DNA from: Methanothermococcus sp. Ax23
GTDB taxonomy: Archaea > AGJL01 > Methanococci > Methanococcales > Methanococcaceae
Assembly (NCBI RefSeq): GCF_049075655.1
Contig: NZ_CP157522.1
Span: 1,568,001-1,632,000, forward strand
Length of the DNA: 64,000 bases
Direction of reading: 5' to 3'
Every line of letters begins with the position of its first letter. The first letter of the stretch is position 1. The notes beneath the pieces were generated by a model. It saw nothing but the letters and a program-made list of their open reading frames with translations. It made no database searches and was not told the origin of the DNA. Positions 1-64,000 of the stretch are shown piece after piece. The translations under genes and the position numbers were made by a program.

Positions 1-1990
1 TTCCAGGAGCGGGAAATGTGAATTTATGGGCATATTTTTCTACATCCAGTGTATTTAATATTATTCCATTATCAAGTTCTTCGGTTTTTATGGCAGGTAT
101 TACCGCTTTCATTTGCCTATCTACCATTTGCATTGCTCTATTGTATAATATATCAATTAATTTTTCATGCCTATTTAGTTCTTTCTTATTTATTCCAAGT
201 ATATCTTCTACAATACCTCTACCGTTCATGAATCTTAAATAAAATGCTTCGAAATCCATACATAATCCAATTTTATCTAAATCGTCTCTTGTATATTCTT
301 TTCCGCTACCATATTTTTTACTGCATTCTGTTAAATCTTCCAATGCTATTTTTACATATTCATCTACTTCTTTTCCTTTTGCATGGTCTCCAACCACGGC
401 TATGCCTGGAAGATGCTTTATTTCGTCAGTAACATCTTTGTTTATCATTCTTGCAACTTCCGTTGCTAAAACCCCTGCGGTTAAGTTGCTATCTCCACCA
501 ACAAGGTATGGATTCACATGAGCTCTTACATATTCATCCACTTCTACCTTACCATCTACAACTTCTCCTGGATAGTGGTGGTCTATCACAACAACATCTA
601 TATCGTATGCCTCAGCTTGTGATATTGCAGGTATATCCTCGTTGGTGCTTCCATTATCTGCCAATACAACCAATGGCATCTTTTGACCAAACCTTAACTT
701 ATCCTCTAATGAGAATGCCAAGTCTTTTGTGATATCTTCCAATTCATAAAATGGTGCCTTAGATGGACTTCTCCTGAAATAGTGCCATTGTGCATCGGCA
801 TCTATTGAAAATTCACTTAATATTGGGAGTATTGCCTTTTCAAGTGCTACACCTGCACAGTATCCGTCGGTATCTGCATGATGCCGTATAATCACAGGTT
901 TTCCATCCAATATTGCTCTTCTTATTCTTTTTGCCACATCGGCCATTTTAGGCCTTAATTTTTCAAGTATTGGACTATCTACAAGGAATTCTATATCACT
1001 GTATGGTTCTGATTTTCTATCTAATTCTCTTTCTATTTTGTCCTTTACAATATCAGCTTTTTCTCCTTCGAGTTTTACCAATTTTATTCTTTCAATTTGA
1101 AGTTTTCCATCTCTTATGGAAACAGTCCCCACCACATCTACAATATCTCCTACCATTATTTCAGGGTGGGTTCTTAAACCTGCAACTTCAAATGCCGCTA
1201 TCCATGCAGTATCTGTTCCATCGGTGATGGTGAATATTGTTGGACCTGGTGTTTGAGTAATTTGGATAATTTCCCCTTGAATATGGACTACTTCATCCCT
1301 CATTTCAAGTATGCCTTTATCGGTGATTTCCTTTATTGTTGTTAATGGGATGCTCTTTTCAAGTTTTTCAATTTTATAGTTTGCAATTGGAATATATCTA
1401 AAATCAACCTCCCTCTTTTGCGGTTTTAATTCAGATACTTGCACAACAACTTCATCCCCTATCTTAAAGTCCCCTAATCTTTTTCCAACCATTTCACGAG
1501 CTCTCAACAAACCCCTTGTCTGGTCATTTAATGAAATGAAAACCCCATATTTTTCAGTTCTTGATACCGTTCCCTTGTAGAATTTACCCTCTTCTAAATC
1601 GTTCATTCCACATAGGTTGTCTAATATATAAACTGTTTTCAAGTTTTTCTTTTTTTCTTCTTCTTCCTTTTTACATTTAGCACATAATGTTTTATTTTTA
1701 TCCTGCGGATATTTACCTATATATTTATCGCATTTATCGCATTTTACAATTTTTCCACTTCCTCCACAGTAATCACAGGTGTCATATATTGGAATCTTTC
1801 CAGAGCCTTTACAGTTCGGACATGGCACCTCTGCAACATCTAAATCGTATTTAGATTTTTTAGAAACTCCCTTAAAGTGGGATTTTGTGTTAAATTCTTC
1901 AATATAGCCAGTTCCCTCACATTCAGGACATGATTCATACCCAACAATTTTTTTTCCTGTTCCTTTGCAAATTGGACATTTATCTATCAT
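1..1990 (-). CDS. Archaeal RecJ-like DHH nuclease with N-terminal DnaJ-type zinc finger and S1/OB domains; runs off the left edge
   Basis: Absent from the ORF track, apparently because no stop falls inside the window. Manual translation from ATG 1990 gives MIDKCPICKGTGKKIVGYESCPECEGTG...CPNCKGSG...CDYCGGSG (CxxCxGxG repeats), an S1-like GKFYKGTVSRTEKYGVFISL, and DHH motifs IIRHHADTDG and VVIDHH. Confidence 0.85.
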   Translation of the reverse strand, partial: MIDKCPICKGTGKKIVGYESCPECEGTGYIEEFNTKSHFKGVSKKSKYDLDVAEVPCPNCKGSGKIPIYDTCDYCGGSGKIVKCDKCDKYIGKYPQDKNKTLCAKCKKEEEEKKKNLKTVYILDNLCGMNDLEEGKFYKGTVSRTEKYGVFISLNDQTRGLLRAREMVGKRLGDFKIGDEVVVQVSELKPQKREVDFRYIPIANYKIEKLEKSIPLTTIKEITDKGILEMRDEVVHIQGEIIQITQTPGPTIFTITDGTDTAWIAAFEVAGLRTHPEIMVGDIVDVVGTVSIRDGKLQIERIKLVKLEGEKADIVKDKIERELDRKSEPYSDIEFLVDSPILEKLRPKMADVAKRIRRAILDGKPVIIRHHADTDGYCAGVALEKAILPILSEFSIDADAQWHYFRRSPSKAPFYELEDITKDLAFSLEDKLRFGQKMPLVVLADNGSTNEDIPAISQAEAYDIDVVVIDHHYPGEVVDGKVEVDEYVRAHVNPYLVGGDSNLTAGVLATEVARMINKDVTDEIKHLPGIAVVGDHAKGKEVDEYVKIALEDLTECSKKYGSGKEYTRDDLDKIGLCMDFEAFYLRFMNGRGIVEDILGINKKELNRHEKLIDILYNRAMQMVDRQMKAVIPAIKTEELDNGIILNTLDVEKYAHKFTFPAPG

Positions 1991-2153
1991 ACTACACCAC
2001 TTTAAATTTTAATAAAAATAGTAAAAAATAATATTTAAAATAATATATAAAATTCAATATATATAGAATTCCTTTATTATAAAAATTTAATTATAACTTA
2101 TAAAGATTAAACTATATAAATATACAAATCAAATAATAAATTATTTTAAAAAA

Positions 2154-2690
2154 TTATTCAATATAGTTATAACCTTTCTCAAAAGCCAATATATTCTTTT
2201 TTTCAGTGCCCTTAGGAACACTATCCAATACAGCTTTTTCCATGGCATCTTTTGAAACAATATTGGTTATTTTTGTGAGAGCTCCGAGCATTACAATGTT
2301 TGCAACTATTTTCAAACCAACTTCTTTATGGGCAATTTCCGTGAATGGAACTTGATATACGTTGAAATTATTTTCATAATCCTCAGGTATGGAGACAAGG
2401 TCTTTATCAACAATTACGCATCCATTTTCTTTTACATCCATTCCATATTTATCAAAGGCAGGTTGGGACATGCAAACTAATATATCAGGTTTTATTACCT
2501 TTGGAAAGCTTATTTCTTCCTCAGATATTACAACCTCAGATTTACTTGCTCCTCCTCTTGCCTCAGGTCCATAAGATTGTGTTTGAACTGCATTCTTGTT
2601 ATCGTAGAGTGAAGCACCTTTACCTAAAATCACACCTGATAGGATTATCCCCTGACCTCCAAAACCTGATAGTCTAATTTCTTTCCTCAT
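2154..2690 (-). CDS. korC: 2-oxoglutarate:ferredoxin oxidoreductase gamma subunit
   Basis: GFGGQGIIL and QSYGPEARGGAS motifs; next to the beta subunit. Confidence 0.88.
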   Translation of the reverse strand: MRKEIRLSGFGGQGIILSGVILGKGASLYDNKNAVQTQSYGPEARGGASKSEVVISEEEISFPKVIKPDILVCMSQPAFDKYGMDVKENGCVIVDKDLVSIPEDYENNFNVYQVPFTEIAHKEVGLKIVANIVMLGALTKITNIVSKDAMEKAVLDSVPKGTEKKNILAFEKGYNYIE

Positions 2691-2780
2691 AATTCCACCT
2701 ATGTTTATTCACATGTTGGTATTTTTAATATTTTATTAATTTTATTTTTATGTTGTTTATAGAGTGATAATGATTATACA

Positions 2781-3578
2781 TTATTTCTGCAATATCTTTA
2801 ACTGTTCTATGAATTCTGGTTTTTCAATATCCAAAAACTCTCCTACAATGATTTTATTTTCCAACTCTTCCTCTGAGAGATTTTCAGCTTTTTTAATAGT
2901 TATTGAATTTTCTTTAAAGAATTTCATCATTTCAGCAGGATTCTTCGAAACATTAAATCTTCCGTAATATGTTGGACATTGTGCAATTACTTCAATAAAT
3001 GAGAATCCTTTTTTCTCTATTCCTTTTTTTATTGCATTTGATAACTGAATAGGATGTGCGGTAGTCCATCTAGCTACATGGGTTGCACCTGCGGCAATTG
3101 CCAACTTGCATAAGTCCATAGGATTTTCTGGATTTCCATAGGGTGCAGTGGTTGCCTTTTTTTCATGTGGTGTAGTTGGGGAACATTGTCCTCCGGTCAT
3201 TCCATATATGTTGTTGTTTATACAAATAACAGTTATATCTATGTTTCTTCTGCAACCGTGAATAAAATGATTTCCTCCAATTGCGGATAAATCACCATCT
3301 CCGGTAAATACAACGACCTTCTTATCATCTCGGGCAACCTTTACTCCTGTTGCAAATGCGATTGGTCTTCCATGGGTTGTGTGCAATGAATCACAATCTA
3401 AATATCCTGGAAGCCTTGATGAACATCCAATTCCAGATATTGCTATATAATCCTCGGAGCTCATGTTTAATTTTTCAAGGGCATTTGCAAAACAGTTCAA
3501 TATAATTCCATTTCCACAACCTGAACAAAATATGTGTGGGAGCCTATCTTCTCTCATATATTTTATTGCTGGATGCAT
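2781..3578 (-). CDS. korB: 2-oxoglutarate:ferredoxin oxidoreductase beta subunit (TPP-binding)
   Basis: FCSGCG, GIGCS, HTTHGR and the GDGD...NNNIYGMTGGQ TPP motif. Confidence 0.9.
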   Translation of the reverse strand: MHPAIKYMREDRLPHIFCSGCGNGIILNCFANALEKLNMSSEDYIAISGIGCSSRLPGYLDCDSLHTTHGRPIAFATGVKVARDDKKVVVFTGDGDLSAIGGNHFIHGCRRNIDITVICINNNIYGMTGGQCSPTTPHEKKATTAPYGNPENPMDLCKLAIAAGATHVARWTTAHPIQLSNAIKKGIEKKGFSFIEVIAQCPTYYGRFNVSKNPAEMMKFFKENSITIKKAENLSEEELENKIIVGEFLDIEKPEFIEQLKILQK

Positions 3579-3657: not shown

Positions 3658-4443
3658 TTAGTTGTTCATCAACGTTGCATGGGAGAGCTCGAAAACTGCA
3701 CCGCCCAAATCATTTCCAATGTCCTGCAATTCTAAACCTTCTATTTCAATGTACTTATCCTCAATGGACATTACAACAGGCAAAAATTTATATGATATTT
3801 CTACGATATCGAAAGGTTTGCAGAACATTTCCACGGCTATTAATCCATAGAACTCCACATTTTTATATGGTCCTTCTTTTTCCAAGGGTTTTGTAATAAC
3901 TTTATTTACTGCTATATCGTCCCCTAATGATAACAATATCTTTTTAATTACATCCTCTTCGGAGCTCCCATAACCTTCAAAAACAGCCTTTACCTTTATA
4001 AGTCCTTCTTCCTGTAATGCAAATATGTCATCTTCATCATAAATGCCATTTTTATACCCTTCAATATCGACATTCTCTTCTTCCTTTATATGGACATTGA
4101 ACATGATGTTGTATTTTTCGCAGAATTTTTTAAAAAACTCAATTATATGAGCAATAGCTTCCCCAAATTCTTTTGAACTAATTTTTAATTTTGAAGGGCT
4201 AATAATATCTAAATCAGCACCATATTTCAGACAAAAATCAACATATTCTAAAAAAGAATTAAATACTATCTTCAATTCCCCGACTTTTGTATATAATCCC
4301 TCTCCATCATCTTCTTCATCTTCTATTGATAGTATTTCGGCGTTATATTTATTTTTTATATCATCCATTAGTTTTTCGAACTCCATATTTACAATATCCT
4401 TATTATTTCCTTTAATTTCTTGATAGGATATAATCTCTATCAT
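3658..4443 (-). CDS. Acidic hypothetical protein
   Basis: Long ORF between lysS and korB on the same strand; GGTGA RBS before ATG 4443; no motif recognised. Confidence 0.7.
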   Translation of the reverse strand: MIEIISYQEIKGNNKDIVNMEFEKLMDDIKNKYNAEILSIEDEEDDGEGLYTKVGELKIVFNSFLEYVDFCLKYGADLDIISPSKLKISSKEFGEAIAHIIEFFKKFCEKYNIMFNVHIKEEENVDIEGYKNGIYDEDDIFALQEEGLIKVKAVFEGYGSSEEDVIKKILLSLGDDIAVNKVITKPLEKEGPYKNVEFYGLIAVEMFCKPFDIVEISYKFLPVVMSIEDKYIEIEGLELQDIGNDLGGAVFELSHATLMNN

Positions 4444-4511
4444 ATTTTTCACCTAAAAAATAGAAAATAAATTATTAATTAATATAGGGGCGGGGATAAA
4501 TAATGAAAATA

Positions 4512-6128
4512 TTATTTCAATAAAGAATATCGCCCAATTACAAACTCCTTATCAAGTGAAGATAGGAAACTTCCCAATTTAGGTCCGTATTTCTTGCCGA
4601 GAAGTATTTTATAGGATGCCAAAAATGCTTCTTTTGGATTCAATTCCATTTCCTTTGCACTGTTGTATATTAACTCATGTATGGATAAGGCATCGAATTC
4701 AACTTCTTTCAATTTCTCGCCAAATGCTTTTATCCATTCCTTCTGTTTTTCATTTAATTCATCATACATTTCCTTTGCTTTTTCTAAATCTATTATTTCC
4801 AGCACTTCACCGTAGTTCAAAGCCCAGTTTCTAGCCATGTATAACCTTGCCTTCAATCTCTCAAAATCACTTTCTTTCATTGAATCGATTGACTCATAGT
4901 TATTTCTTTTAAGGATTTCCAGCACCTTATCCATGTTAATTTCTTCTTTTTCAGCATCATAGGCTATCTGAGATACTATTACACAGAATCTATATGGTAT
5001 TTGCAAAGGCAACTCATCAGGTATTTTTGGTGTTGAGAGCTCATACAATCTTATCTTATCCATTTCATTTTCATTCAATTCAATGCCTTCTTCTCTCTTT
5101 TTCATTAACTCGAAATATTTTCTTTCGAGCTCCTCATAATCATCTACAAGGTTAGGAATTGCCTTTAAATCAAAGTCGATATGTTTTGTAGGTTTGCTTC
5201 TCAACAGCAAAAACCTTAAAATCTCAGGGTGGCAGATTTTTACCCAGTCCTTAACTGCAAACACGACACCAGATGATGAAGACATTGGGACTGCCTTGTC
5301 CCCTATTTTCAACTGAATCCATTCGTAAATTATTTTTTCTGGTGCTTGATAGTTATATACTGCTCTGGCAATTTTAACTCCTGTATCATAAGAACCGCCG
5401 GATGTCCCGTGGTCTTTACCCATAGGCTCTGCTATTACATTGAATATGCTCCATCTTGCAGGCCAATCAACTCTCCAAGGGAGTTTTCCCCTACCTTTAA
5501 AGGGTTCTACTGTGTTTTTATAACCACAGGAGCATTCATAATCAACGGTTTTATTCTCACTATCGTAGTTAATTACCTTTGTTGTGCTTAATTTACCACA
5601 TTTCTCACAAACTATGTTTAACGGATACCAGTCTTCTGGAAGGGGTTCTTTTCTGTATTTATTTAATATATCCCTTATTTTATCCCTATTTTCCAGAGCC
5701 AATACTATTGTTTCGTCATAAAGCCCATTTTTATAGTTTTCATCAGCTTTATAGACGGTTAAATCAATGCCTAAATCATCCAAACTATCTACAAATGGTT
5801 TTAGGAAATGGTCCGCATAACTTTCACAGCATCCCTCAGGGCATGGAATTTCACTTATAGGCATGCCAACATATTTTTCATACTCATCTGGTAAGAATGG
5901 ATAAACCTTCCTAAGTGGGTCATAGGTGTCAGCAATGAATATGAGCTCCGCCTCAACACCATTGTTTAACAGTCCCTTATAAAGTGCATCTGCTGTGAGT
6001 GTTTCCCTTGCATTTCCTACATGTATGTGTCCTGATGGAGTAATACCACTTGCAACAAGGTATTTTTCAGGATTCTGTTTTTCTCTCTTTTTTATTATTT
6101 TTTTAGCCATTGCGTCAGCCCAATGCAA
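4512..6128 (-). CDS. lysS: Class I lysyl-tRNA synthetase
   Basis: MHWAD start, [13 protein letters not shown] (HIGH-like), [25 protein letters not shown] (KMSKS-like), GPKLG. Confidence 0.96.
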
Positions 6129-6386
6129 ATAATCGCCTCCTATATTTATATTTCATATACTTTTAATTATAATTTATTTTATGGATAAATGTTATAATAA
6201 CATATAATTTATTTTATTAAAATTTTTCATCGTAAATTATAAATATTATAAAAACTCTCTTAATTCAAAACTTGTTTAACATATCATGAGCTCACATCTC
6301 ATGACAATGAGACATACTACAATAGCCTTTTTTAAGGTTGATTTAAATTATATCTTATAGTATATAAGATTATTTTTGATGATAAT

Positions 6387-6803
6387 ATGAAAGAATATAA
6401 ATCACCATCCTTAACTGTTGATGGTATAATTCAAATTGATGATAAAATCCTATTAATAAAAAGAAAAAACCCGCCCTTTAAAGATTCATGGGCATTTCCG
6501 GGAGGGTTCGTAGAATATGGAGAAACTACTGAAAATGCAGTTATGAGGGAAATCTACGAAGAAACCAATTTAAAGACCAAAATAAAACATCTCCTTGGGG
6601 TGTATTCAGACCCCAATAGAGACCCAAGGGGTCATACCGTTTCTGTTGTTTATATTTTAGAACATATTGAAGGAGCTCCCAAGGGTTCCGATGATGCCAA
6701 GGAGGCAAAGTTATTTAAAATCGAAGAGGTCAAAGATTTAGATTTGGCATTTGACCACAAAAAGATATTTAATGACTATTTGAAGTATTTAAAAAAGAAA
6801 TGA
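6387..6803 (+). CDS. Nudix hydrolase (ADP-ribose pyrophosphatase-like)
   Basis: Nudix box GGFVEYGETTENAVMREIYEETNL; RDPRGH and LAFDH. Confidence 0.9.
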   Translation: MKEYKSPSLTVDGIIQIDDKILLIKRKNPPFKDSWAFPGGFVEYGETTENAVMREIYEETNLKTKIKHLLGVYSDPNRDPRGHTVSVVYILEHIEGAPKGSDDAKEAKLFKIEEVKDLDLAFDHKKIFNDYLKYLKKK

Positions 6804-7190: not shown

Positions 7191-7880
7191 TTATTTTTTA
7201 ATAATATTAATTCCATTTACTAATATTTTACCGGCTCTGCTTTTTTTACCTTCTTTTTCAACAAAAACTCTTAATTTTCCAGCTCTGCAAAAATGCTGGA
7301 CCCTTAAACCAATATCTATTAAGGTTTTTTCATTGAATTCTTTTCCAATAAATTCCTGCAATGTTTCGGAGCTCGAACCACATGGAGACTCCCTTATTAC
7401 ATCCATATCTTTAATTATATCATTATCCAAATAAATATTAACAATCGGTTTTCCAAAGTATTTTAAAAACTCTTTTAATTGCGGGTATTTATCCAACTTA
7501 TCTTTTAAATCATGTTCATCTAAATTACACATTAAATCTGGACAAATTACATTTCCAAAACTTTCAAGTTGTTTTTTAAACCCTTCTCCTCTCCATGCCC
7601 CCACGATTACAAAGATTTTTTTGTTCAATTTTTCATTAATATTATGTATTTCATTTATGAGAGCGTATGTTAAATCTGGATTTATAATATATGTAATTAT
7701 TACGTCATATTTTTTTAGCTCATTCAGCTGAGCTCTATCGATTTCAATATCTTCAAAATCCCCAGCATAATTTATCTTCAAAAAATCACAATTAAACTTT
7801 TTCCCAATGACTCCTGTGGCTCGGTCCCCATATTTTCCCTCTGAAATAATGGCAACATCCATATTTGCATTTATGTTCAT
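7191..7880 (-). CDS. DUF166-like conserved archaeal protein
   Basis: GKYGDRA start and CPDLMCNL, FGKP, SPCGS motifs; family recalled from memory, not searched. Confidence 0.6.
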   Translation of the reverse strand: MNINANMDVAIISEGKYGDRATGVIGKKFNCDFLKINYAGDFEDIEIDRAQLNELKKYDVIITYIINPDLTYALINEIHNINEKLNKKIFVIVGAWRGEGFKKQLESFGNVICPDLMCNLDEHDLKDKLDKYPQLKEFLKYFGKPIVNIYLDNDIIKDMDVIRESPCGSSSETLQEFIGKEFNEKTLIDIGLRVQHFCRAGKLRVFVEKEGKKSRAGKILVNGINIIKK

Positions 7881-8368: not shown

Positions 8369-9013
8369 ATGGCAACACTACATAAAATTTATACCCCAAG
8401 AATACTCAACACAGTTGAAATAATTGGAATATTATGCACAATTGAAATTCTGATATCTTTTATATTATCCACCTATAACCCCCCATATGAATATATATTG
8501 ATGGAGTTGGATTTTATATCTATTTCATTTCTTACTTTTGAGTTTTTTTATAAATTAATGGGGGCAAAAAATAAATTAAAATTTTTTAAAAATATATATA
8601 ATATAATAGATGCCATTGTTGTTGGTGCTTTTGCTTTATATTTATTACAAATGACCTCGACTACCGCAGTTGTTAGTTTGAGGATAATTAATGCAGTTAG
8701 AATATTGATATTATTAAGAGTAATAAAATTCAAACATCTTAACCTAAGCCGTGAGTCTATTAACTTTATAACCATATTAATATTTAGTTTTATATTATCA
8801 TGTTTTATATGGTTAGCTGAAAATGAGGTAAATCCAAAAATAAACAATTTTGCAGATGCATTTTACTTTACAGTAATATCTATAACCACCATTGGATATG
8901 GGGATATTACACCTCAAACCATGTGGGGAAAAATAATAATTGTTCTTGCAGTATTATATATTGTATCTGGACTAATAACAAGAGCTCAGAAAATATTTGA
9001 ATACAACAAATAA
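8369..9013 (+). CDS. Voltage-gated 6-TM potassium channel (MVP-like)
   Basis: Selectivity filter TTIGYGDITP; S4-like LRIINAVRILILLRVIK. Confidence 0.9.
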   Translation: MATLHKIYTPRILNTVEIIGILCTIEILISFILSTYNPPYEYILMELDFISISFLTFEFFYKLMGAKNKLKFFKNIYNIIDAIVVGAFALYLLQMTSTTAVVSLRIINAVRILILLRVIKFKHLNLSRESINFITILIFSFILSCFIWLAENEVNPKINNFADAFYFTVISITTIGYGDITPQTMWGKIIIVLAVLYIVSGLITRAQKIFEYNK

Positions 9014-13134: not shown

Positions 13135-14262
13135 TTATTGGAATAAAAACGGCATGCTGTCATCCACACCTGGAACAAAGTTTGTTGTTTTTCTTATTTT
13201 TAATTGAGTTCTATGATAAATATACGCCACTGGAATCTCCATTGGACATACGTCTTCACACTGACCGCAGTTTATACAGCTGAAACTCATGTGGGACAGT
13301 CTGATGCCTTGGAACATTACCGGGTCAGGTGGAATCTCTCCTTTATCCATGTAATCTTCATTTAAAGCACACTCCCTACAAAAGCATATTGGGCAGGCAT
13401 CCCTGCAACCGTAGCATTTTATGCACCTGTTCCAATACTCCTTCCATTTTTCAATGGAAGGGTATTTCTCTTCAAGCTGTTCCTTTTGAGCAGATTTAGC
13501 AAGGTTAATCATAATTTTTTCAATCTTTTCCCTAATCTTAATGCCCTTTTCAGAAGGGGTTTTGACCTTAATATATCCTTCTTTTTCAGCATTTTCAATT
13601 AACTCCCTTCCTTTTTCTGAACACACTTCAACAAAAGTCCATCCATCTTCTGCTCCCCAGTTTCCACAGGCAATATCTGCATTTCTTGGAATCTTTAATT
13701 CACATCTCTGGCAGTTTTTTCTCCTTCCAAATCCTTTCTCTTCTAAATCGTGTATTTTAATAGCTTTATGGGTCCCATCCTTTAATTCTATTATGAATTT
13801 ACCACTATCTATCTCTTCCTTGACAACATCCTCAGGATTTACGCCGTAAAACATCTCTATCATTTTCATGGCAGTAATTGGTGGAATTGTTCCACCGCAG
13901 TTTAAACCTATTGTGTAGATATTATCCTTATCTATCTGGTGTCTTTTTTGGAGCTCCTTTATAGCCATGGCATCACATGGCTTTACAGCTACGGCTAATT
14001 TTAAATCATTTAAATATTTGCTTATAATATTTCCAAAGTTTGTTGGAGCACAATGTAGAGAACCACATGTTTGGATGAGCTCCTCTGAGCTTTTTACAAG
14101 GGTGGGTATTCCATCATAAACATCTTCTCCCTTTTTTAGGGCTAAAACTCCATCCACAAGTTCTTTATCTAACAGATATTTGAATAATGCAGACACTGCC
14201 CCACCACATTCAGCATGTTTTAATATGTTCTCATCTGTTGATTGGATTAAAAGGTATTTCAT
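13135..14262 (-). CDS. fdhB: F420-dependent formate dehydrogenase beta subunit
   Basis: [42 protein letters not shown] and two C-terminal CxxCxxCxxxCP motifs. Confidence 0.95.
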
Positions 14263-49626: not shown

Positions 49627-51105
<1,479 letters not shown>

Positions 51106-54400: not shown

Positions 54401-55573
54401 ATGAAAATAGCCATGATAACTTGGGAATATCCGCCAATTATGGTGGGAGGATTATCGGTTCATTGTAAGGGTCTTGCTGAGGCACTTGTTAGGGCGGGGC
54501 ATAGTGTCGATGTAATTACAATGGGTTATGATTTACCTGAATATGAGAATATAAACGGAGTGAATATACACCGTGTAAAACCAATAGGGCATAGTCATTT
54601 TCTAACATGGATTAATTTCATGGCACATTTCATGGAAAAAAAATTAGGTTCATTAGGAATACATAACTATGATGTAATACACTGTCATGACTGGATGACT
54701 CATTTTGTAGGTAGCAATATAAAACATCTTTTTAACAAACCATATATTCAATCCATTCATAGCACAGAACAGGGAAGATGCGGTGGAATTCATTCTGAAG
54801 ATTCAAGGGCAATAAACGACATAGAATGGTGGAGCACCTATGAATCCCATGCAGTGATTACAGTTAGCAATTCAATAAAAGAAGAAATATGTTCAACATT
54901 TAATACTCCTTGGGATAAAGTAAATGTAATATATAATGGAATAAACCCTTGGGAATTTGACATACCAATGAGTGATAATGAAAAAAATGATTTTAGGATA
55001 CATATTGGAGTTCAACCTCATGAAAAAATGATATTGTTTGTTGGAAGGCTGGTTTATCAGAAAGGCGTGGAATATCTAATAAGAGCATTTCCCAAGATTC
55101 TTGAACAGCATCCCGATTCAAAAATGGTAATAGCAGGTTCGGGGGATATGCGAGGATATTTGGAAGATTTGGCATTTCAGCTTGGATGTAGGGATAATAT
55201 AATATTTTTAGGATTTGTTGGAGGGGATATGCTGAAAAAGCTTTTTAAATCTGCGGATGTAACCGTCATTCCATCAGTTTATGAACCCTTTGGGATTGTG
55301 GCACTTGAATCTATGGCAGCCGGAGCTCCTGTGGTTGCAAGTGGTGTTGGAGGTTTAAGAGAGATTATCCAGCATGAATATAATGGAGTTACTGTATATC
55401 CTGAAAATCCAGATTCTATTGCATGGGGTGTTAATAGGGTTCTTTCAGATTGGGGATTTAAAGAATGGATTGTAAATAATGCAAAGCATGATGCATATAC
55501 AAAATACAGTTGGGACGCCATAGCAAACAGCACAGTTGAAGTTTATAACAAGGTGATAGACTCTATAAAATAA
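54401..55573 (+). CDS. GT4-family glycosyltransferase in the glycogen cluster
   Basis: WEYPP..VGGL, HCHDW, VGRLVYQKG, PSVYEPFGIVALE. Confidence 0.9.
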   Translation: MKIAMITWEYPPIMVGGLSVHCKGLAEALVRAGHSVDVITMGYDLPEYENINGVNIHRVKPIGHSHFLTWINFMAHFMEKKLGSLGIHNYDVIHCHDWMTHFVGSNIKHLFNKPYIQSIHSTEQGRCGGIHSEDSRAINDIEWWSTYESHAVITVSNSIKEEICSTFNTPWDKVNVIYNGINPWEFDIPMSDNEKNDFRIHIGVQPHEKMILFVGRLVYQKGVEYLIRAFPKILEQHPDSKMVIAGSGDMRGYLEDLAFQLGCRDNIIFLGFVGGDMLKKLFKSADVTVIPSVYEPFGIVALESMAAGAPVVASGVGGLREIIQHEYNGVTVYPENPDSIAWGVNRVLSDWGFKEWIVNNAKHDAYTKYSWDAIANSTVEVYNKVIDSIK

Positions 55574-55921: not shown

Positions 55922-57979
55922 ATGGTAGGAATTATAGGAAATGGAAAATCTCTTGCAAAATTGGATGATGTGGGGTCTATTGAATATATATTCTTTCCAC
56001 ATTTGGGTTTTGAAAAACATATCTTTGACTCTGCATTTGCAATATATTGTGATGGCGAATTAAAATGGCACTGGGATTACTCATGGAAAATCAGTCAAGG
56101 ATATTTAAAAGATACAAATATTTTAAAAACCACATATGAAGATGAGAACTTTTTAGTAAGTTCTATGGATTATATTTCAATATCTCACAATATCCTAGTT
56201 AAACAGATATCCATTCTCAACAGAACAGAAGAAAAAAAGCATTTAAAATTATTTTTCTATGAAAATTTAAGGATGGGAGAATATCCAAAAGAGAATACTG
56301 TTAAATTTTTAAAGAATAATAATTGTTTAATTAAATACGATGGAAAATATATTTGTTGTATGGGAAGTGGTAAAAACATATCATCATATCAATGTGGTTT
56401 GAGGTCGTCTGAAAGTAGTGCCTATAATGATATTGAAAATGGTGTTTTAAAAGAACAGGATACTGCCAAAGGATTAATTACCGATAGTGCATTATGTTGG
56501 GAGATTGAATTAAATCCCTTCCAAGAAGTAGTTATTCCCATATATATACTAATGGCGGAATATAACGACAACTACTATGATATTATGAACTTAATAGACA
56601 CATTAAAAGTAGTTGCTAAAAATAATGAAGATATGTATAATCTCTCCCTAACTTATTGGAAAACCCTCGTTCAAGATACTGTCAATAATTTATCTACAAC
56701 GAAATGTGCAAATCTAAATGTCGAGAGACGGAAAAAATACATCGATACATGTAAAAGGTCTTTACTAACAATATTTATGTTGTGTAATCACGATGGGGGC
56801 ATAATAGCTTCACCATCATTATATCCCGATTACAGATATGTATGGAATAGAGATGCAAGCTATATGTCTGTTGCATTGGATTTATGCGGCTTATCCCCTA
56901 TGAGCGAAAAATATTTCGACTGGTGCAAAAAAACCCAAAATAGCGATGGGTCATGGATTCAAAATTATTATATTGATGGAAAACCTCGATTAACTGCAAT
57001 GCAAAATGACCAAGTTGGCACTACAATTTGGGCAGCTCTGGTTCATTATAGGATTACACATAACAAATTATTTTTAAAAAGACATTGGAATATGATTAAA
57101 AAAGCTGCAAATTATTTAGCTAAAACTGTGGAACCTCCATCTCCATGCTATGATTTATGGGAAGAAAAATATGGGGTGTTTTCATACACAATTGGGGCAA
57201 CATATGGTGGTTTAAAATCTGCCTGCAATATTATGAATATATTAGAAAAAGAATGCGAATATAAAATGACCAATGACGATAAAAAATGTTTTAAACAGTG
57301 GAGCTCAGCTATCGAATCATTAAAAAATAATGTTAATAAATTTTATTTAAAGGAAGAAAATAGGTTTGCAAAATCAATAACTCCACTGGATAAAACAATT
57401 GACACCAGCATATTGGGATTAAGCTTCCCCTATGATTTAGTTCCAGCAGACGACCCAAGAATGATAGCGACAGCATTGCAGATTGAAAATGCATTTAACT
57501 ATAAAATCGGGGGAATTGGAAGATATCCAGAAGATGTATATTTTGGAGGCAATCCATGGATAATAACTACCTTGTGGTTATATATGTATTATAAAAGGCT
57601 AATTAAATTATTGTCAAAAGATATAAATCAGAGATTTTCCAGACCTGGATTTGTAGAATATATAGGGGACTGCGAAAAACTACAATCATCTCGAAAAGAT
57701 GAGCGAAATGATGATGTGAATGTGAATGTGGATGATGTTGTTCAATCTTTAAATAATATCCAAAGCGTGAATATGACAAAAAAGGACCTTATTAAACACT
57801 GTCATAAAAAATGCGACGAGCTATTTAACTGGGCATTGAAGCATCAATATAATGGACTATCTCCTGAGCAAATTCACAAAGACCTCGGAGCTCCCATATC
57901 GGCAATTCCCCTTGGTTGGTCACATGCTGCCATAATAATGGCAATTCACAGCAATGATTATGATATTTTAATTCCATAA
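55922..57979 (+). CDS. Glucoamylase (GH15)
   Basis: GGIIASP, YRYVWNRD, QNDQ, DLWEE, IGRYPEDVY.GGNPW, PEQ, PLGWSHA. Confidence 0.92.
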   Translation: MVGIIGNGKSLAKLDDVGSIEYIFFPHLGFEKHIFDSAFAIYCDGELKWHWDYSWKISQGYLKDTNILKTTYEDENFLVSSMDYISISHNILVKQISILNRTEEKKHLKLFFYENLRMGEYPKENTVKFLKNNNCLIKYDGKYICCMGSGKNISSYQCGLRSSESSAYNDIENGVLKEQDTAKGLITDSALCWEIELNPFQEVVIPIYILMAEYNDNYYDIMNLIDTLKVVAKNNEDMYNLSLTYWKTLVQDTVNNLSTTKCANLNVERRKKYIDTCKRSLLTIFMLCNHDGGIIASPSLYPDYRYVWNRDASYMSVALDLCGLSPMSEKYFDWCKKTQNSDGSWIQNYYIDGKPRLTAMQNDQVGTTIWAALVHYRITHNKLFLKRHWNMIKKAANYLAKTVEPPSPCYDLWEEKYGVFSYTIGATYGGLKSACNIMNILEKECEYKMTNDDKKCFKQWSSAIESLKNNVNKFYLKEENRFAKSITPLDKTIDTSILGLSFPYDLVPADDPRMIATALQIENAFNYKIGGIGRYPEDVYFGGNPWIITTLWLYMYYKRLIKLLSKDINQRFSRPGFVEYIGDCEKLQSSRKDERNDDVNVNVDDVVQSLNNIQSVNMTKKDLIKHCHKKCDELFNWALKHQYNGLSPEQIHKDLGAPISAIPLGWSHAAIIMAIHSNDYDILIP

Positions 57980-58118: not shown

Positions 58119-59699
58119 ATGTTAATTTCATTTAATTTTGAGGTGCATCAGCCCCATAGATTAAAAAAAACGGTTGATGGACACAGTAAAAATATATGGG
58201 ATAGGTATGTTGATGTTGAATTAAACAAAGAGATATTCAATAGAGTAGCAAATAAATGTTATATTCCTGCAAATAGGACAATTTTGGATTTAATAGATGA
58301 GTATGACATTAAAGTGGCATACAGCATTACAGGCGTATTTCTTGAACAGGCCATGGAATTTAATAATGAGGTTTTAGATTTATTTAAAGAGCTCGTAAAA
58401 ACAGGGAATGTTGAACTTATTGGGGAAACCTACTATCATTCACTTTCAAGTCTCTTTGAAAATCATGATGAATTTAAAGAGGATATTGAAAAACATAAGA
58501 AGATTATCAAAGAACTATTTGGATACAAAACTGAGGTTTTTAGAAATACTGAATTAATGTATAATAATAATATAGCTGAAACCGTTAAGGAATTGGGATT
58601 TAAAGGGATATTTACAGAAGGTGCCGATAGAATACTTGATTGGAGGTCTCCAAATTATGTATATAACGCTCCATGTGGATTGAATGTCCTTTTAAGAAAC
58701 TATAAATTAAGCGATGATATTGGATTCAGATTCTCATGTCCAGATTGGAATGAATATCCTTTAACTGCTGATAAATATGCATCATGGTTGGCGAGCTCCC
58801 CTGGTGATTGTATAAATATATATATCGATTATGAAACCTTTGGAGAACACCAATGGAAAGAAACTGGGATTTTTGAGTTTTTAAAATATCTTCCTGCGGA
58901 AATTGAAAAATATCATAATCTTGAATATGCAAAACCTTCTGAAATAATTGACAGATGCACACCGAGGGGGGAAATAGATGTCTTTGAATTCTCAACATTA
59001 TCGTGGGCAGACTCTGAAAGAGATGTGAGTGCATGGTTAGGCAACAGGATGCAGAAGCTTTCATTTGAGAGATTAAAAGATATTAGGCAATACCTTGGAA
59101 GATACATATCATCGAAATATGCTAAACATGGGGGCAATGTTCAAGATGATGAAATAATGGAATATAAATTATATAAAAACCTTCAAACAAGTGATAATTT
59201 TTACTATCAATGCACAAAGGGATTTAACGATATGGATGTGCATTCTTATTTTAGCCATTTTGAAACTCCTTATGATGCTTATGCCACTTATATGGATATT
59301 CTTTATGATTTTAAAAATCATTTAATAGTCAGTCAAATTTTGGACAAATATGTTAAAAAAATTGAAAGTTTGAACTTGGAGATAAAAACATTAAAAGAAA
59401 ATGACCGGTATAAAAATGAGAATATGGCATTGACTAATGAAATAGAGAATTTAAGAAGTAAATTAAAATTATTGGAAAAGGACATAAATAATAAAAACAA
59501 AGATATTCAAAAACTAAAAAATGAAAATAGTAAATTAATTAATGAAATCATAATGTTAAACTCAAAAGCTCCCAATAACTCGAAGAGTAAAAAAATAAAA
59601 AAAAATAATATAGAGGAGCCAAACTTAAAAGATATAGAAGATAAACCTAATGAAAAAGAAAAAAAACATAATCTTGACGAATTTATAATTGGCTCATAA
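58119..59699 (+). CDS. Alpha-amylase (GH57) with a C-terminal coiled-coil tail
   Basis: FEVHQP, ETYYHS, FRNTEL, LSDDIGFRF, DYETFGEH, SWAD, QTSD. Confidence 0.92.
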   Translation: MLISFNFEVHQPHRLKKTVDGHSKNIWDRYVDVELNKEIFNRVANKCYIPANRTILDLIDEYDIKVAYSITGVFLEQAMEFNNEVLDLFKELVKTGNVELIGETYYHSLSSLFENHDEFKEDIEKHKKIIKELFGYKTEVFRNTELMYNNNIAETVKELGFKGIFTEGADRILDWRSPNYVYNAPCGLNVLLRNYKLSDDIGFRFSCPDWNEYPLTADKYASWLASSPGDCINIYIDYETFGEHQWKETGIFEFLKYLPAEIEKYHNLEYAKPSEIIDRCTPRGEIDVFEFSTLSWADSERDVSAWLGNRMQKLSFERLKDIRQYLGRYISSKYAKHGGNVQDDEIMEYKLYKNLQTSDNFYYQCTKGFNDMDVHSYFSHFETPYDAYATYMDILYDFKNHLIVSQILDKYVKKIESLNLEIKTLKENDRYKNENMALTNEIENLRSKLKLLEKDINNKNKDIQKLKNENSKLINEIIMLNSKAPNNSKSKKIKKNNIEEPNLKDIEDKPNEKEKKHNLDEFIIGS

Positions 59700-61186: not shown

Positions 61187-62467
61187 TTATTCATCATCGG
61201 GGATTTCAGCCCTAATGAATTCATCTTTATTTTTCTTTAAACTTATCGTGGCATCTATTCCCATTTTTGCCGTCAATTTATTTTTATGGTCTCCTGATGG
61301 GTCCAGTGAGGAACCTTTTGCGTCGCTTATAATAAGTATATCTTTATCAGCTTGAACTCTTGTGGCAATGGCAAACTCCACATCCTTTGGGTCATAGATG
61401 TTTATGTCATCATCTACAATCACCACATGTTTTAAACTTGGATGGGAAGCAAGTGCCGCAAGTATGGCATTTTTTCCATCTCCTTCTGTTTTCTTCTCAA
61501 TTGACACTACGGCGTGAAGCCAGCAACATCCCCCTTCTGTTAATACCACATTCTTTACCGATGGAACGGTGTTTCTAATGCCCTTATACATTCTCGGCTC
61601 CTGAGGTAATCCCATTAAAATTTTATGCTCCACTCCGCCGGGGAGTAGGGCGTGGAATATGGCATCTTTTTTTCTTTTCAATGCCGTTATTTTTATTACA
61701 GGCTGTTTTCTAATTGTATCGTAGGTTCCAGTAATATCTACAAAAGGACCTTCATCGTCCATTTCTGCGGTTATTTTTCCTTCAATAATAAATTCGCCCG
61801 CAGGGACTTCTAAATCTACGGTATCGCATTTAATCAGTTTTAGTGGCTCATTCATTAATGCAGAGGCATATTTCAATTCATTAAAAGTTATATCTCCTGA
61901 TGTAGATGCTGCCAAAAGCACAGCTGGATGAGCTCCGATAACTATTGCCACATCCACATCCCCATCCTTAATGTTTTTGTTGTAGATGTAATGTAAATGT
62001 CTCTGTTCTACCATTCTAATTACTAAATGATTGTCCTTAATTAAAATTCTATGGATGGATGCGTTTATCCCATAATCCTTATCTTTAACTATTACAACTC
62101 CTGATGTAAGGTAAGGTCCTGCATCTTTTTCGTAGTAGGTTGGTATAGGGTATTCATTTATTTTGTCCAAATCATCATTTACATACTGTTCCTTTAAGCT
62201 ATTATCTACTATTAGCTCCCCATTTTTCTCATTATCCATGGCATTTAACATGTGTTTCATTAAATCATTTACTTCTATTCCCAAGCTTTTTGCTATCACT
62301 TCCCTATTACACAGATTTCCTATAACTTCATATCCATTTACATTTTTTATATATACGGGCTTTCCATCATATTTCTTTAAAATCTTTGTTATCCCATATT
62401 TTTTATTTGCTGACTCTATCTCAATTTTATCTATTGAATCAACCAAGTCCCTTATCATAACATTCAC
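61187..62467 (-). CDS. UbiD-family prenyl-FMN decarboxylase (possibly archaeal mevalonate pathway)
   Basis: DAGPY, NASIHR, EGPFVDITGTY, VDDDI, SSLDPS, KMGIDAT; the specific substrate is inferred. Confidence 0.88.
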   Translation of the reverse strand: MNVMIRDLVDSIDKIEIESANKKYGITKILKKYDGKPVYIKNVNGYEVIGNLCNREVIAKSLGIEVNDLMKHMLNAMDNEKNGELIVDNSLKEQYVNDDLDKINEYPIPTYYEKDAGPYLTSGVVIVKDKDYGINASIHRILIKDNHLVIRMVEQRHLHYIYNKNIKDGDVDVAIVIGAHPAVLLAASTSGDITFNELKYASALMNEPLKLIKCDTVDLEVPAGEFIIEGKITAEMDDEGPFVDITGTYDTIRKQPVIKITALKRKKDAIFHALLPGGVEHKILMGLPQEPRMYKGIRNTVPSVKNVVLTEGGCCWLHAVVSIEKKTEGDGKNAILAALASHPSLKHVVIVDDDINIYDPKDVEFAIATRVQADKDILIISDAKGSSLDPSGDHKNKLTAKMGIDATISLKKNKDEFIRAEIPDDE

Positions 62468-62486
62468 CTTCTTATTTTATCTTTCT

Positions 62487-62780
62487 TTATCTTTTCTTTC
62501 TAGCAATTTCTTTTTCTATCTTTTCACCGGTATCTTTTAATCTACTTGATACACTTCTCGGCACATTGCCATATTCCGATAGTATTTTTGCAATACCGCT
62601 TGATAACAAAAATATGGCGTATGTATGTTCAGATTTTGTTCTATGTATATGATGGGGGTATATCTTCAATGCATCGTAATTTACAAAATATTCATCAATT
62701 GAATTACCAAATTTTTTTGTTAAATTCTTTCTCATATATACTAAAAGTTGATGTAATTGGATGAGCTCATCCTTATGCAT
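62487..62780 (-). CDS. UPF0058-family protein
   Basis: MHKDELIQLH and IYPHHIHRTKSEH..AIF. Confidence 0.85.
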   Translation of the reverse strand: MHKDELIQLHQLLVYMRKNLTKKFGNSIDEYFVNYDALKIYPHHIHRTKSEHTYAIFLLSSGIAKILSEYGNVPRSVSSRLKDTGEKIEKEIARKKR

Positions 62781-62879
62781 GCAATCACCTAAGGTATGAA
62801 ATATATTTCATGATAAATAAATTAAATAAACTAAATAAATTAAAATTTTGCAAATAAGTATGTAAAATTAGAAAGAGAG

Positions 62880-64000
62880 TTATGTCTGGTTAAAATTATC
62901 GTATGAAAAAATCCTTAAATTTGCAGGTTTTTTTGCAATATTTATTTCCTTCCCAATCATTACAGAAGTGTTTTCATAAAATAAATCAACTATTTTTTGA
63001 GTGATAGGGACATCAGATATAAAAAAATTAATATTTTGATTAGCATATTCATTCTCATTTAATTCGTTAATAGATTTAATCTCTTCAAATCCGTCTCCTA
63101 TTATTTTTACTTTATTAGTCCCTAAAATTTCCTCCATTGACGATTTAATATAATTCAACTGTCCAACATAGTCATCAGTTTTGAATATTTCATACGACAT
63201 CCGATTATCTGAATCACCGTCTTTTTTGTCGTCATTATGGGTTTCTTTTATCTCTTCTTCGTTTTTTAGCTCAGATAATACCTCTGATTCGTTTAGCTGA
63301 GATACATCGCTTATGCACTCCGATATTCCTGTCATTTTTTCCTTATTATATATGCCACTTGCCAAATCATCCATTGTCTGCGTATCATTTATTGCCTTAT
63401 TTATTACAGTGCTATAATTGTTTATGACATGACCTTTGTTGGCATTTAATTGAATATACTGTTCAATTGGAATCTTTGACCGTAAATATTTTACAACCTC
63501 TTTTTTAGACAAATCTTCCACTTCCTTTCCGTGGGGAGCTCTTGCAATATAATCTATATCACATGTTTGAAGAGCCTCTTTTAATATAAGCTCCCCTCCC
63601 CTATCTCCATCAGTAAATATCGTCGTGGTTTTTTTCCTTGAAAGTTCCATTATGGTTTTTGGAATTGATGTCCCTTCAACAGCTATAACATTTTTTATAC
63701 CACATCTTAAAAGATTGATAACATCTGCCCTACCTTCCACTACAATTATAGCATCTGAATTATCAATATTTGGTCCAGCTGGAAGTTTCTCCTCCCCATA
63801 TTCAATTATTTCTTCAGTTCTGATATACTCCTTTATCTCTTCCGTAATTTCATATGTATCAACCATATTATCTATGAGTGTTTTTAGGAGCTCCTTTGCC
63901 CTATTTGTAATATACTGTCTCTTTTTAATACGAATATCCTCGACATTCACCACCCTAACAGTAGCTAAACAAGGCCCCACCCTATCGATTGTTTCCAATG
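62880..64000 (-). CDS. dnaG: Archaeal DnaG-type primase/exosome-associated protein; 5' end lies beyond the right edge
   Basis: ETIDRVGPC and TOPRIM motifs IIVVEGRADV and FTDGDRGG. Confidence 0.92.
   Translation of the reverse strand, partial: LETIDRVGPCLATVRVVNVEDIRIKKRQYITNRAKELLKTLIDNMVDTYEITEEIKEYIRTEEIIEYGEEKLPAGPNIDNSDAIIVVEGRADVINLLRCGIKNVIAVEGTSIPKTIMELSRKKTTTIFTDGDRGGELILKEALQTCDIDYIARAPHGKEVEDLSKKEVVKYLRSKIPIEQYIQLNANKGHVINNYSTVINKAINDTQTMDDLASGIYNKEKMTGISECISDVSQLNESEVLSELKNEEEIKETHNDDKKDGDSDNRMSYEIFKTDDYVGQLNYIKSSMEEILGTNKVKIIGDGFEEIKSINELNENEYANQNINFFISDVPITQKIVDLFYENTSVMIGKEINIAKKPANLRIFSYDNFNQT

Follow-up and report, generated by a model that had tools for sequence, protein, structure and literature searches.

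The hexameric palindrome GAGCTC was found to be over-represented, as the exact word only, in a 64,000-nucleotide stretch (C1:1568001-1632000, referred to below as the window; GC content 32.5%) and throughout the rest of the genome of Methanothermococcus sp. Ax23 (G000; 1,662,948 + 7,732 bp, GC content 31.9%). The window contains a total of 73 exact copies (1.14 per kb) spanning positions 520 to 63893, against a mean of 4.31 (SD 2.06, maximum 9) in dinucleotide-preserving shuffles of the same DNA, none of the 100 shuffles reaching 73. The preliminary description of this window had estimated about 70 copies and a chance expectation of about 4-5, both of which agree with these counts, and the copies that it located, including those at 520, 1498, 2279, 41155/41179/41204, and 63888, were all recovered. 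The enrichment is a lineage-specific trait, present in 5 of the 40 species genomes of the order that were compared.

Over-representation of the exact word

The whole genome carries 2089 copies of GAGCTC, or one per 0.8 kb, and four copies are present on the 7.7-kb plasmid. In the genome-wide hexamer count against Markov nulls that had been proposed as a check, GAGCTC ranked first of all 4096 hexamers for over-representation. Its observed/expected ratio is 16.7 when base composition is the null and 19.7 under a dinucleotide Markov model, falling to 13.1 and 4.9 for models of order 2 and order 3, respectively. The low ratio of 1.6 at order 4 arises because each site itself supplies the pentamers GAGCT and AGCTC. 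All 18 single-substitution variants stand at 0.04-1.22-fold of expectation, and among them GAGCTA (0.91), GAGCTT (0.63), and GAGCTG (1.20) show that the parallel enrichment of near variants, which the preliminary description had named as evidence to the contrary, is absent. The remaining NAGCTN words lie at 0.5-1.23-fold. Nearly all other 6-bp palindromes of the genome are depleted or neutral, and a general correction of quasi-palindromes was dropped as an explanation given their lack of enrichment. These results show that the enrichment is real and limited to the exact word GAGCTC.

Enrichment across the reading frames and non-coding DNA

As a proxy for genes, non-overlapping open reading frames (ORFs) of at least 100 amino acids were used (n = 1514, 85% of the genome), so that smaller genes and RNA genes fall among the non-coding DNA. 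By this proxy, 1929 sites of G000 are coding and 160 non-coding, and the coding sites are read as GAG-CTC (frame 0) in 1094 cases, as xGA-GCT-Cxx (frame 1) in 616, and as xxG-AGC-TCx (frame 2) in 220. With the ORFs of at least 100 amino acids in the window, 26, 31, and 7 sites were assigned to these three frames and nine were intergenic, as expected from the earlier claim that the word occurs in every frame and outside genes. Since a shuffle that preserves codon pairs keeps the GAG-CTC pairs by construction, synonymous codons were shuffled within each gene instead (n = 30), giving 188.3 +/- 11.8 copies (maximum 213) against 1928 observed; a codon-based null close to the observed count, also named beforehand as contrary evidence, was therefore not obtained. 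GAG and CTC are both minor codons in G000, yet 1094 of 3923 Glu-Leu pairs are written GAG-CTC (66 expected), and 1094 of the 2807 CTC codons directly follow GAG.

In the non-coding DNA (253 kb, GC content 25.7%), GAGCTC is again the top hexamer, at 17-fold of expectation on composition and 28-fold on the dinucleotide model. The spacers between divergent genes contain 0.40 sites per kb, more than 10 times the expectation, and a function at the RNA level was dropped on this ground. The sequences flanking the sites are unique and AT-rich, so that a dispersed repeat or a miniature inverted-repeat transposable element was likewise dropped. Coding is thus shown not to explain the enrichment, and the force behind it acts at the level of DNA. 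That composition, the usage of codons or amino acids, or a dispersed repeat carrying the word produced the signal as an artefact might be suspected from the frame 0 reading, which encodes the common dipeptide Glu-Leu, and from the low order-4 ratio, but the latter follows from the pentamers as stated above, the codons involved are minor ones, the enrichment in non-coding DNA is equal, the flanks contain no repeat, and relatives use other synonymous codons at orthologous positions. Refuted by the variant ratios, the synonymous shuffle, the non-coding enrichment, and the one-off base preference described below, this explanation has practically no chance of being correct.

Strength and evenness of the bias

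Among the places where the protein sequence permits the word, GAGCTC is carried by 1092 of 3882 in frame 0, 616 of 856 (72%) in frame 1, and 218 of 1135 in frame 2. Calculated against codon usage outside the sites, the odds ratios are 41, 33, and 13 in the three frames, respectively, which correspond to a scaled bias S of about 2.6-3.7. The pull is of about equal size everywhere, in the three frames, in the non-coding DNA, and on the plasmid. Where five of the six letters are matched and the sixth is synonymous, the cognate base is favoured 26- to 473-fold over the odds from codon usage, and this one-off preference holds at positions 2, 3, 4, 5, and 6, equally for transitions and transversions. 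For instance, the context GA-GCN-C contains GCT 616 times and GCA, the preferred alanine codon, three times, with two GCC and one GCG. As all base changes are pulled alike, a repair of deamination damage restricted to T:G mismatches would not yield this pattern.

The states one step away from the word were compared with a one-parameter equilibrium, and stood at 0.49, 0.066, and 0.37 where 0.73, 0.30, and 0.82 were predicted; the states two steps away were intermediate in depletion. GAA-CTC and GAG-CTT are the most depleted of the Glu-Leu pairs (0.30 and 0.31). The depletion at one step may reflect either an ongoing drain or a penalty on near-cognate sites.

Along the genome, the site counts are no more even than a Bernoulli process on the available opportunities (variance ratio 1.11-1.59 for bins of 2-50 kb), and the raw counts per 10 kb are Poisson-like, with a mean of 12.5 and a variance of 13.0. 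The probability per opportunity is flat, at 0.29-0.42 per 100 kb, and is also flat across classes of protein conservation. The sites thus behave independently of each other. Genome-wide, gaps of 25-48 bp are somewhat commoner than under an exponential distribution (93 against 60 expected) and those of 1-12 bp are rarer (9 against 31).

Core genes contain 1.52 sites per kb and accessory genes, defined by the absence of a reciprocal best hit in G010, contain 0.85. Accessory clusters of low GC content make up the largest gaps between sites (11.1, 7.4, 7.0 kb, and others): the longest are C1:113848-124946 (11.1 kb), 1342927-1355393 (7.4 + 5.1 kb), and 809168-816163 (7.0 kb), and the genes within such stretches are mostly without orthologues in G010. 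These clusters are likely to be recently acquired islands, and the accumulation of sites goes with the time of residence in the genome.

Distribution among relatives and dialects of the word

The five enriched genomes are G000 (2089 copies), G012 (2070), G010 (1645), G003 (1321; 90% complete), and G037 (1515), the last of which belongs to another genus, while the other 35 contain 4-229 copies each. The closest named relatives of G000 are Methanothermococcus (95% identity in topoisomerase VI B). The lowest counts were found in G008 (9), G007 (4), G005 (14), and G002 (16), because the core AGCT is avoided in these genomes: AGCT stands at 0.08-fold in a sample of G008, where one of 408 Glu-Leu pairs is written GAG-CTN, and AAGCTT, taken as a proxy for AGCT, is also low in all four.

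In a tree of a single gene, topoisomerase VI B (30 of 38 genomes with a match, FastTree, branch supports left aside), G008 and G007 adjoin the clade G010 + (G012, (G000, G003)), and G037 groups with a non-enriched genus. The median protein identity to G000 is 86.7% for G012, 75.6% for G010, 76.2% for G037, and 76.5% for G008. By these values, in agreement with the tree, G008, G010, and G037 are about equidistant from G000, so that the trait either arose on two occasions or arose once, with later loss or overwriting.

The word is longer in G010, in which position -1 is G in 85% of half-sites and the octamer GGAGCTCC occurs in 1259 copies, 307-fold of the dinucleotide expectation; the other NGAGCTCN words are at 2-15-fold. 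Within the non-coding DNA of G010 (23.6% GC), there are 264 copies of GGAGCTCC where composition predicts 0.10, and in spacers the octamer often extends to GGGAGCTCCC. The intergenic octamers lie at a median of 62 nucleotides (nt) from gene ends against 157 nt from gene starts, and 11 pairs are only 8-10 bp apart in AT-rich spacers, for example at G010:C1:92037-92053, 124116-124133, and 140450-140465, some of them forming perfect palindromes of 18-20 bp. In G000, G012, and G037 the word is the hexamer; the same outer G/C is favoured there too, though less strongly, and the flanks are GC-richer out to about +/-4 than those of frame-matched Glu-Leu non-sites. The outer G/C preference of G000, G010, and G037 fits related readers of differing stringency.

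Another palindrome, CTGCAG, stands at 3.7-3.8-fold of the dinucleotide expectation in G037 (1-400000) and in the G008 sample (L182-L221), and at 0.14-fold in G000. It is a second and weaker palindrome whose abundance flips between related genomes.

Maintenance of the sites at orthologous positions

Orthologues were taken as reciprocal best hits with an alignment over at least 70% of the longer protein, and sites with gaps or non-contiguous codons were dropped. Sites of G000 are also sites at 135 of 169 positions in G012, 406 of 1613 in G010, 89 of 402 in G037, and 1 of 156 in G008. At conserved Glu-Leu pairs, joint sites exceed the expectation under independence in G012 (75 vs 28.8), G010 (210 vs 108.5), and G037 (42 vs 25.9). 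Part of this excess may come from ancestral CTN leucine codons, if these are converted more readily: in G008, GAA-CTT stands at 28 of 43 positions that are sites in G000 and at 10 of 71 others, although no general excess of CTN after Glu was detected in G008.

Between G000 and G012, codons for the same amino acid are far better conserved inside sites than outside. Inside sites, CTC is identical in the two genomes in 79 of 86 cases, GAG in 79 of 91, GCT in 45 of 48, and AGC in 16 of 19; the corresponding figures outside sites are 26 of 119, 273 of 549, 248 of 368, and 70 of 143. The sites are clearly under active maintenance between these relatives. When the differences between the two genomes were polarised by G010, five gains and seven losses were assigned to G000 and five gains and two losses to G012, with 37 further differences ambiguous and two without an outgroup, and the turnover of sites looks to be near balance. 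Several private sites involve a change of amino acid, such as Glu-Ile to Glu-Leu, and in topoisomerase VI B of G037 a site was made from Thr-Leu.

DNA methyltransferases and other candidate genes

The DNA methyltransferase candidates of G000 are a 300-amino acid N6_N4 enzyme (M1), a Type III Mod, a Type I HsdM, two Type IIG-like fusions, and a 567-amino acid Eco57I-like enzyme; PF00145 (C5 methylase) had no match in this genome. A methylase tracking the enrichment, which the preliminary description had suggested searching for, did not emerge: the five enriched genomes have no member of PF01555, PF02384, or PF00145 in common (PF02086 was searched in G000), and family searches in G003, G012, G010, G037, and G008 gave no common DNA methylase. 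One clear candidate was identified in G010, a 453-amino acid N6_N4 enzyme. At the family level, G012 gave Type I-like and Type IIG-like matches together with weak ones of the size of RNA or protein methylases, and no Type II-like methylase with PF01555, PF02384, or PF00145.

None of the individual enzymes of G000 follows the trait. Close orthologues of M1 are present in G003 and in seven non-enriched genomes and are absent from G012, G010, and G037; G000 and G037 are the only genomes with a full-length copy of a 1069-amino acid Type IIG enzyme; and the Eco57I-like enzyme has a match of similar size only in G003. Genes much closer to those of G037 than to those of G010 turned out to be metabolic paralogues, and a synteny filter for genes missing from G008 left a single gene, ferritin. 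RE_SacI (PF09566) was found in none of the 40 genomes, a search in which the control was silent in every genome as well.

Some features of these loci are recorded here in their own right. The M1 gene (G000:C1:1437541-1438443) contains no GAGCTC. Beside it on the opposite strand lies an ORF of 245 amino acids, 1438422-1439159(-), without a Pfam family, which is possibly its endonuclease. Close orthologues of M1 also occur in the other family of the order, which suggests from the gene comparison that M1 may have spread horizontally. The 1069-amino acid Type IIG fusion (Eco57I, MmeI_Mtase, TaqI_C), located outside the window at G000:C1:353653-357512, is adjoined by a 216-amino acid protein without a Pfam family, and the G037 counterparts of the two are 78% and 89% identical. 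The N-terminal half of the same Type IIG enzyme, with a different C-terminus, is encoded on the small second contig of G012. As to other words, G000 avoids GATC (0.03-fold), GTAC (0.15), GGCC (0.19), GCGC (0.19), CTAG (0.21), and ACGT (0.31), and the gapped palindromes GTNNAC and CTNNAG, with four members each, are at 0.05-0.16-fold of the order-4 expectation; the avoidance is visible in the window as well. These are typical footprints of restriction, though few Type II methylases are present in G000.

Positions of the sites in the window

The nine intergenic sites comprise the six for which a non-coding location had been claimed, 6288-6293, 19358-19363, 19985-19990, 38158-38163, 41821-41826, and 49278-49283, and three further ones, 24272-24277, 31035-31040, and 62763-62768. 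From the left end, the ORF running off the window start to 1990(-) carries 520-525 and 1498-1503 (both frame 1), ORF 2154-2690(-) carries 2279-2284 (frame 1), ORF 2781-3578(-) carries 3457-3462 (frame 2), and ORF 3658-4452(-) carries 3685-3690 (frame 0) and 3962-3967 (frame 2). The lysyl-tRNA ligase ORF 4512-6128(-) has three frame 0 sites, 5037-5042, 5127-5132, and 5943-5948, the second of which is GAACTC in one 98%-identical metagenome contig. ORF 6387-6803(+) contains 6673-6678 (frame 1), which is GAGTTC in two 98%-identical metagenome contigs, and ORF 7191-7880(-) contains 7369-7374 (frame 2) and 7730-7735 (frame 1), the latter being GAGCTA in one close metagenome contig. In about 10 kb of such contigs from close relatives, four window sites are changed (5127, 6673, 7730, and one more), and no site private to the relatives was found in this sample, which is too small for counting.

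Further to the right, 8982-8987 (frame 1) is in ORF 8369-9013(+), and the pyrophosphatase ORF 9073-9993(-) contains 9505-9510 and 9808-9813 (frame 0) as well as 9909-9914 (frame 1). Five frame 1 sites follow, 11251-11256 and 11377-11382 in ORF 10656-11576(+), and 11667-11672, 11877-11882, and 12375-12380 in ORF 11543-12595(+). ORF 13135-14274(-) carries 13951-13956 and 14077-14082, both in frame 0. The formate dehydrogenase alpha ORF 14305-15891(-) contains 15321-15326 (frame 1) and 15529-15534 (frame 0). This gene extends over 14305-16347(-), its joint frame being interrupted once, at codon 136, by an in-frame TGA, and the NCBIfam match of the downstream ORF begins at profile position 146; judged from the reading frame, the TGA looks like a selenocysteine codon.

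ORF 20468-21445(-) has sites at 20580-20585 (frame 2), 20702-20707 (frame 0), and 21078-21083 (frame 2), followed by 22376-22381 (frame 0) in ORF 22031-22552(-), 23616-23621 (frame 1) in the polyferredoxin-like ORF 22573-24045(-), 24683-24688 (frame 1) in ORF 24453-25250(-), 26123-26128 and 26972-26977 (frame 1) in the EhbF ORF 25689-27146(-), 29266-29271 (frame 1) in the LonB ORF 28356-30440(+), and 31617-31622 (frame 1) in ORF 31420-32280(-). The topoisomerase VI B ORF 32422-34461(-) carries four frame 0 sites, all at conserved Glu-Leu pairs (33145-33150, 33583-33588, 33676-33681, and 34270-34275), and the ammonium transporter ORF 35002-36288(+) carries 35891-35896 (frame 1) and 36205-36210 (frame 0). 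Next are 38282-38287 (frame 1) in ORF 38262-38846(-) and 40241-40246 (frame 0) in ORF 39740-40831(+). A cluster of three sites within 55 bp (41155-41209) is located in the transketolase (N-terminal) ORF 40906-41730(+), at 41155-41160 (frame 0), 41179-41184 (frame 0), and 41204-41209 (frame 1).

In the right-hand part of the window, frame 1 sites are found at 43587-43592 in ORF 42806-43753(+), at 43863-43868 and 44052-44057 in ORF 43805-44599(+), and at 46380-46385 in ORF 45761-47026(+), and frame 0 sites at 44617-44622 in ORF 44608-45750(+) and 47339-47344 in ORF 47042-48193(+). The ADP-phosphofructokinase ORF 49627-51072(-) contains 49930-49935 and 51034-51039 (both frame 0), and the glucose-6-phosphate isomerase ORF 51142-52458(-) contains 51424-51429 (frame 0) and 52194-52199 (frame 1). 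The last sites are 55323-55328 (frame 1) in ORF 54401-55573(+), 57301-57306 (frame 2) and 57888-57893 (frame 1) in ORF 55922-57979(+), 58389-58394 (frame 0) and 58793-58798 (frame 2) in ORF 58119-59699(+), 61930-61935 (frame 1) in ORF 61187-62467(-), and 63536-63541 (frame 1) and 63888-63893 (frame 0) in the ORF from 62880 to beyond the window end (-).

Comparison with known systems

No published description of GAGCTC enrichment was found in the literature on Methanocaldococcus, Methanococcus, Methanothermococcus, and archaeal palindromes, the matching papers being concerned with primers or CRISPR. The closest parallel is HIP1, the highly iterated palindrome (GCGATCGC) of cyanobacteria, which with its alternate forms is likewise a short, GC-rich, and hyper-abundant palindrome. 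Xu et al. (2018, PMC5861425) describe HIP1 as 15-300-fold enriched, take its conservation as evidence of selection, and report periodicity; a quasi-periodic distribution at 10-90 kb is reported for HIP1. Rodriguez-Cruz et al. (2026, PMC13756078) found HIP1 to be correlated with genes for pili and competence, put forward the hypothesis of an uptake sequence, and name DmtA and DmtC as methylases that read HIP1. Like GAGCTC, HIP1 occurs in all frames and between genes, is conserved beyond background, and is replaced or missing in some lineages; it is an octamer, as is the word of G010 at 307-fold, and the cause of HIP1 is still debated. The HIP-like behaviour claimed at the outset is accordingly borne out by the restriction to the exact word, its presence in all frames and in non-coding DNA, its conservation beyond the synonymous background, and its poverty in accessory islands. 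Of the features that characterise HIP1-type words, G000 shows an at least 15-fold enrichment of a short GC-rich palindrome, occurrence in all frames and in non-coding DNA, and conservation beyond controls; a cognate methyltransferase wherever the word is abundant was not found in the gene content of the five enriched genomes. The two differ in the word and in the host, cyanobacterial in one case and archaeal in the other, in breadth, a whole phylum against 5 of 40 species of one order, and in gene content, since DmtA and DmtC are cognate to HIP1 but no orphan methylase is common to the enriched genomes. GAGCTC thus resembles HIP1 in every tested feature except the link with a methylase.

The uptake signal sequences (USS) of Haemophilus and the DNA uptake sequences (DUS) of Neisseria occur about once per kb, occupy permissive frames, are scarce in acquired DNA, and form dialects, in all of which GAGCTC is similar. 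Even spacing is also a feature of USS and a prediction of drive models. GAGCTC shows the density of about one per kb and the scarcity in acquired DNA but not the even spacing, and as a palindrome of 6-8 bp it is unlike USS and DUS, which are non-palindromic words of 9-12 nt with a known receptor or a demonstrated uptake bias.

Very-short-patch repair by Vsr and Dcm, which generates an excess of CCWGG in Escherichia coli and has a counterpart in Mig.Mth of Methanobacterium, is similar in that a site-specific mismatch correction raises its own word and depletes a one-off neighbour. Its effect, however, is small and confined to T:G mismatches next to an m5C (5-methylcytosine) methylase, whereas the GAGCTC bias covers all base changes at 17-300-fold; G000 has neither PF00145 nor Vsr; and instead of the Vsr footprint, in which only the T-for-C neighbour is depleted, all alternatives are disfavoured 26-473-fold at positions 2-6. 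Restriction-site avoidance also produces lineage-specific swings of short palindromes, but by depletion and not by enrichment. Chi sites are short over-represented words that mark self DNA for recombination and vary between taxa, but they are asymmetric, strand-skewed, and only few-fold enriched, in contrast to the palindromic GAGCTC at 17-20-fold. To our knowledge, no archaeal Chi has been described.

Proposed mechanism and alternatives

We infer that a directional force would turn near-matches into exact GAGCTC and then keep them, whatever the reading frame, outside genes as well as inside, and also on the small plasmid. A hypothetical sequence-specific protein would read the (g)GAGCTC(c) duplex and bias which strand or allele survives where a site meets a non-site, as may happen at replication errors or in heteroduplexes between genome copies; the outcome would be biased mismatch correction or gene conversion toward the exact palindrome, site by site and independently of other sites, with no dependence on a conserved classical DNA methyltransferase or on a T:G-specific repair of deamination. 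We put the chance of this mechanism somewhat short of even. A wider proposal is tentative, with a chance of about one third: that archaea possess a methyltransferase-independent iterated-palindrome system, whose reader would have shifted its specificity between GAGCTC and GGAGCTCC in sister species, biasing repair, conversion, or exchange. So envisaged, the bias would have the strength to convert between a fifth and three quarters of all synonymous opportunities, would prevail over codon usage and at times over the amino acid, and would have placed GC-rich octamers by the hundred in spacers of 24% GC.

Several observations weigh against this proposed correction by a reader. No correcting enzyme was found: Vsr (PF03852) is absent from all 40 genomes (control positive in 3 of 14), and NucS is absent from the five enriched genomes and present in 10 of 40 overall. 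Neither a reader protein nor a trait-tracking gene appeared among the candidates examined, and G000, G003, G010, and G037 each possess some predicted methylase. One-off neighbours are 1.5-4.6 times scarcer than more distant states, at odds with a simple stepwise correction at equilibrium, and the 264 intergenic octamers of G010 are hard to explain by stepwise correction. Selection or an uptake drive would predict conserved sites and site-poor accessory DNA just as well. Finally, heteroduplexes between genome copies presuppose polyploidy, which is known in other Methanococcales and is an assumption for the present genomes.

That GAGCTC is instead a tag for DNA exchange like USS and DUS, whereby uptake, packaging, or transfer prefers DNA with (G)GAGCTC(C) and recombination spreads the sites, is unlikely. 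Such a tag would account for the density of one site per 0.8-1.3 kb, the poorer accessory DNA, the dialects of related species, the enrichment of the plasmid, and the position of the G010 intergenic sites nearer gene ends than starts with their 11 close pairs; moreover, HIP1 is now proposed to be an uptake sequence with which methylases are not significantly correlated (PMC13756078), and natural transformation exists in Methanococcales (PMC10133366). Yet the spacing is no more even than chance (1.1-1.6), which speaks mildly against an uptake drive with one tag per fragment, as the tight clusters and the 72% saturation of frame 1 (616/856) are also unlike such an advantage; a 6-bp palindrome discriminates little; no receptor is known; and no uptake specificity is reported in the accessible part of the transformation paper (PMC10133366). 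It is distinctly unlikely that the sites are selected for binding an abundant protein, either of the nucleoid or chromatin or as a Chi-like signal in recombination and end-processing that labels self DNA, with a small benefit from each. Conservation beyond background, from which selection on HIP1 was inferred in the same manner (PMC5861425), a flank preference to about +/-4 bp that is the size of a protein footprint, and values of S compatible with weak selection in a large population all agree with such binding, against which stand the enrichment of the plasmid, the lack of any regular spacing, the depletion of one-off sites that should bind weakly and be enriched, and the 35 of 40 related species that do without the word, close relatives even avoiding its core AGCT.

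The preliminary description had put first among its explanations a repair bias coupled to a methylase. GAGCTC would be marked by a methyltransferase, and a mismatch enzyme working with it would restore or create the methylated word by repair of the very-short-patch type, a model that Elhai reportedly proposed for HIP1 in 2015. This finds no support in gene content, in which neither a shared methylase family nor Vsr was detected, and the bias extends beyond T-to-C changes; we regard it as improbable. It draws on G000, G003, G010, and G037 each having one or more methylases of a Type II-like or Type IIG kind, on the transition neighbours GAA-CTC and GAG-CTT being the most depleted Glu-Leu pairs, and on AGCT-specific N4-methylcytosine (m4C) methylases being common in archaea (PMC11033074). 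The enriched genomes, however, have no orthologous methylase in common, as seen from the distributions of M1 and the Type IIG enzyme and from the matches in G012 and G010; G000 lacks PF00145, and Vsr is missing from all 40 genomes; and the bias in A-to-C, G-to-C, A-to-T, C-to-T, and G-to-T changes is as strong as in T-to-C. Furthermore, GAGCTC is absent from the motifs given in the accessible part of a single-molecule real-time methylome of one Methanococcales strain, Methanococcus aeolicus PL15/Hp, which may or may not carry the enrichment: m4C at CTAG, N6-methyladenine at GTNAC, GCACY, and CGAG, and inferred m5C at ACGT (PMC10113651). Protection of a methylated C from deamination alone was judged, by reasoning only, to be too weak for a 17-fold enrichment.

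Implications

It is three decades since HIP1 and similar hyper-abundant palindromes came to be known, and methylation-linked repair, nucleoid structure, and DNA uptake are still debated as their causes. GAGCTC provides a second and independent case in another domain, with a sharp on/off difference between close species (5 of 40), two dialects, and apparently no shared methylase, and makes the question both comparative and experimental, through the search for a trait-tracking gene and the distinction of repair bias from uptake bias. If the proposed reading is true, this would be the first archaeal counterpart of HIP and USS, and an independent system for asking what such palindromes are for. 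At the practical level, the abundance of the word skews the statistics of codon pairs, makes DNA of foreign origin recognisable in these genomes, and predicts an extreme sensitivity of the DNA to enzymes of the SacI or AluI type. The trait may also shape gene flow among vent methanogens.

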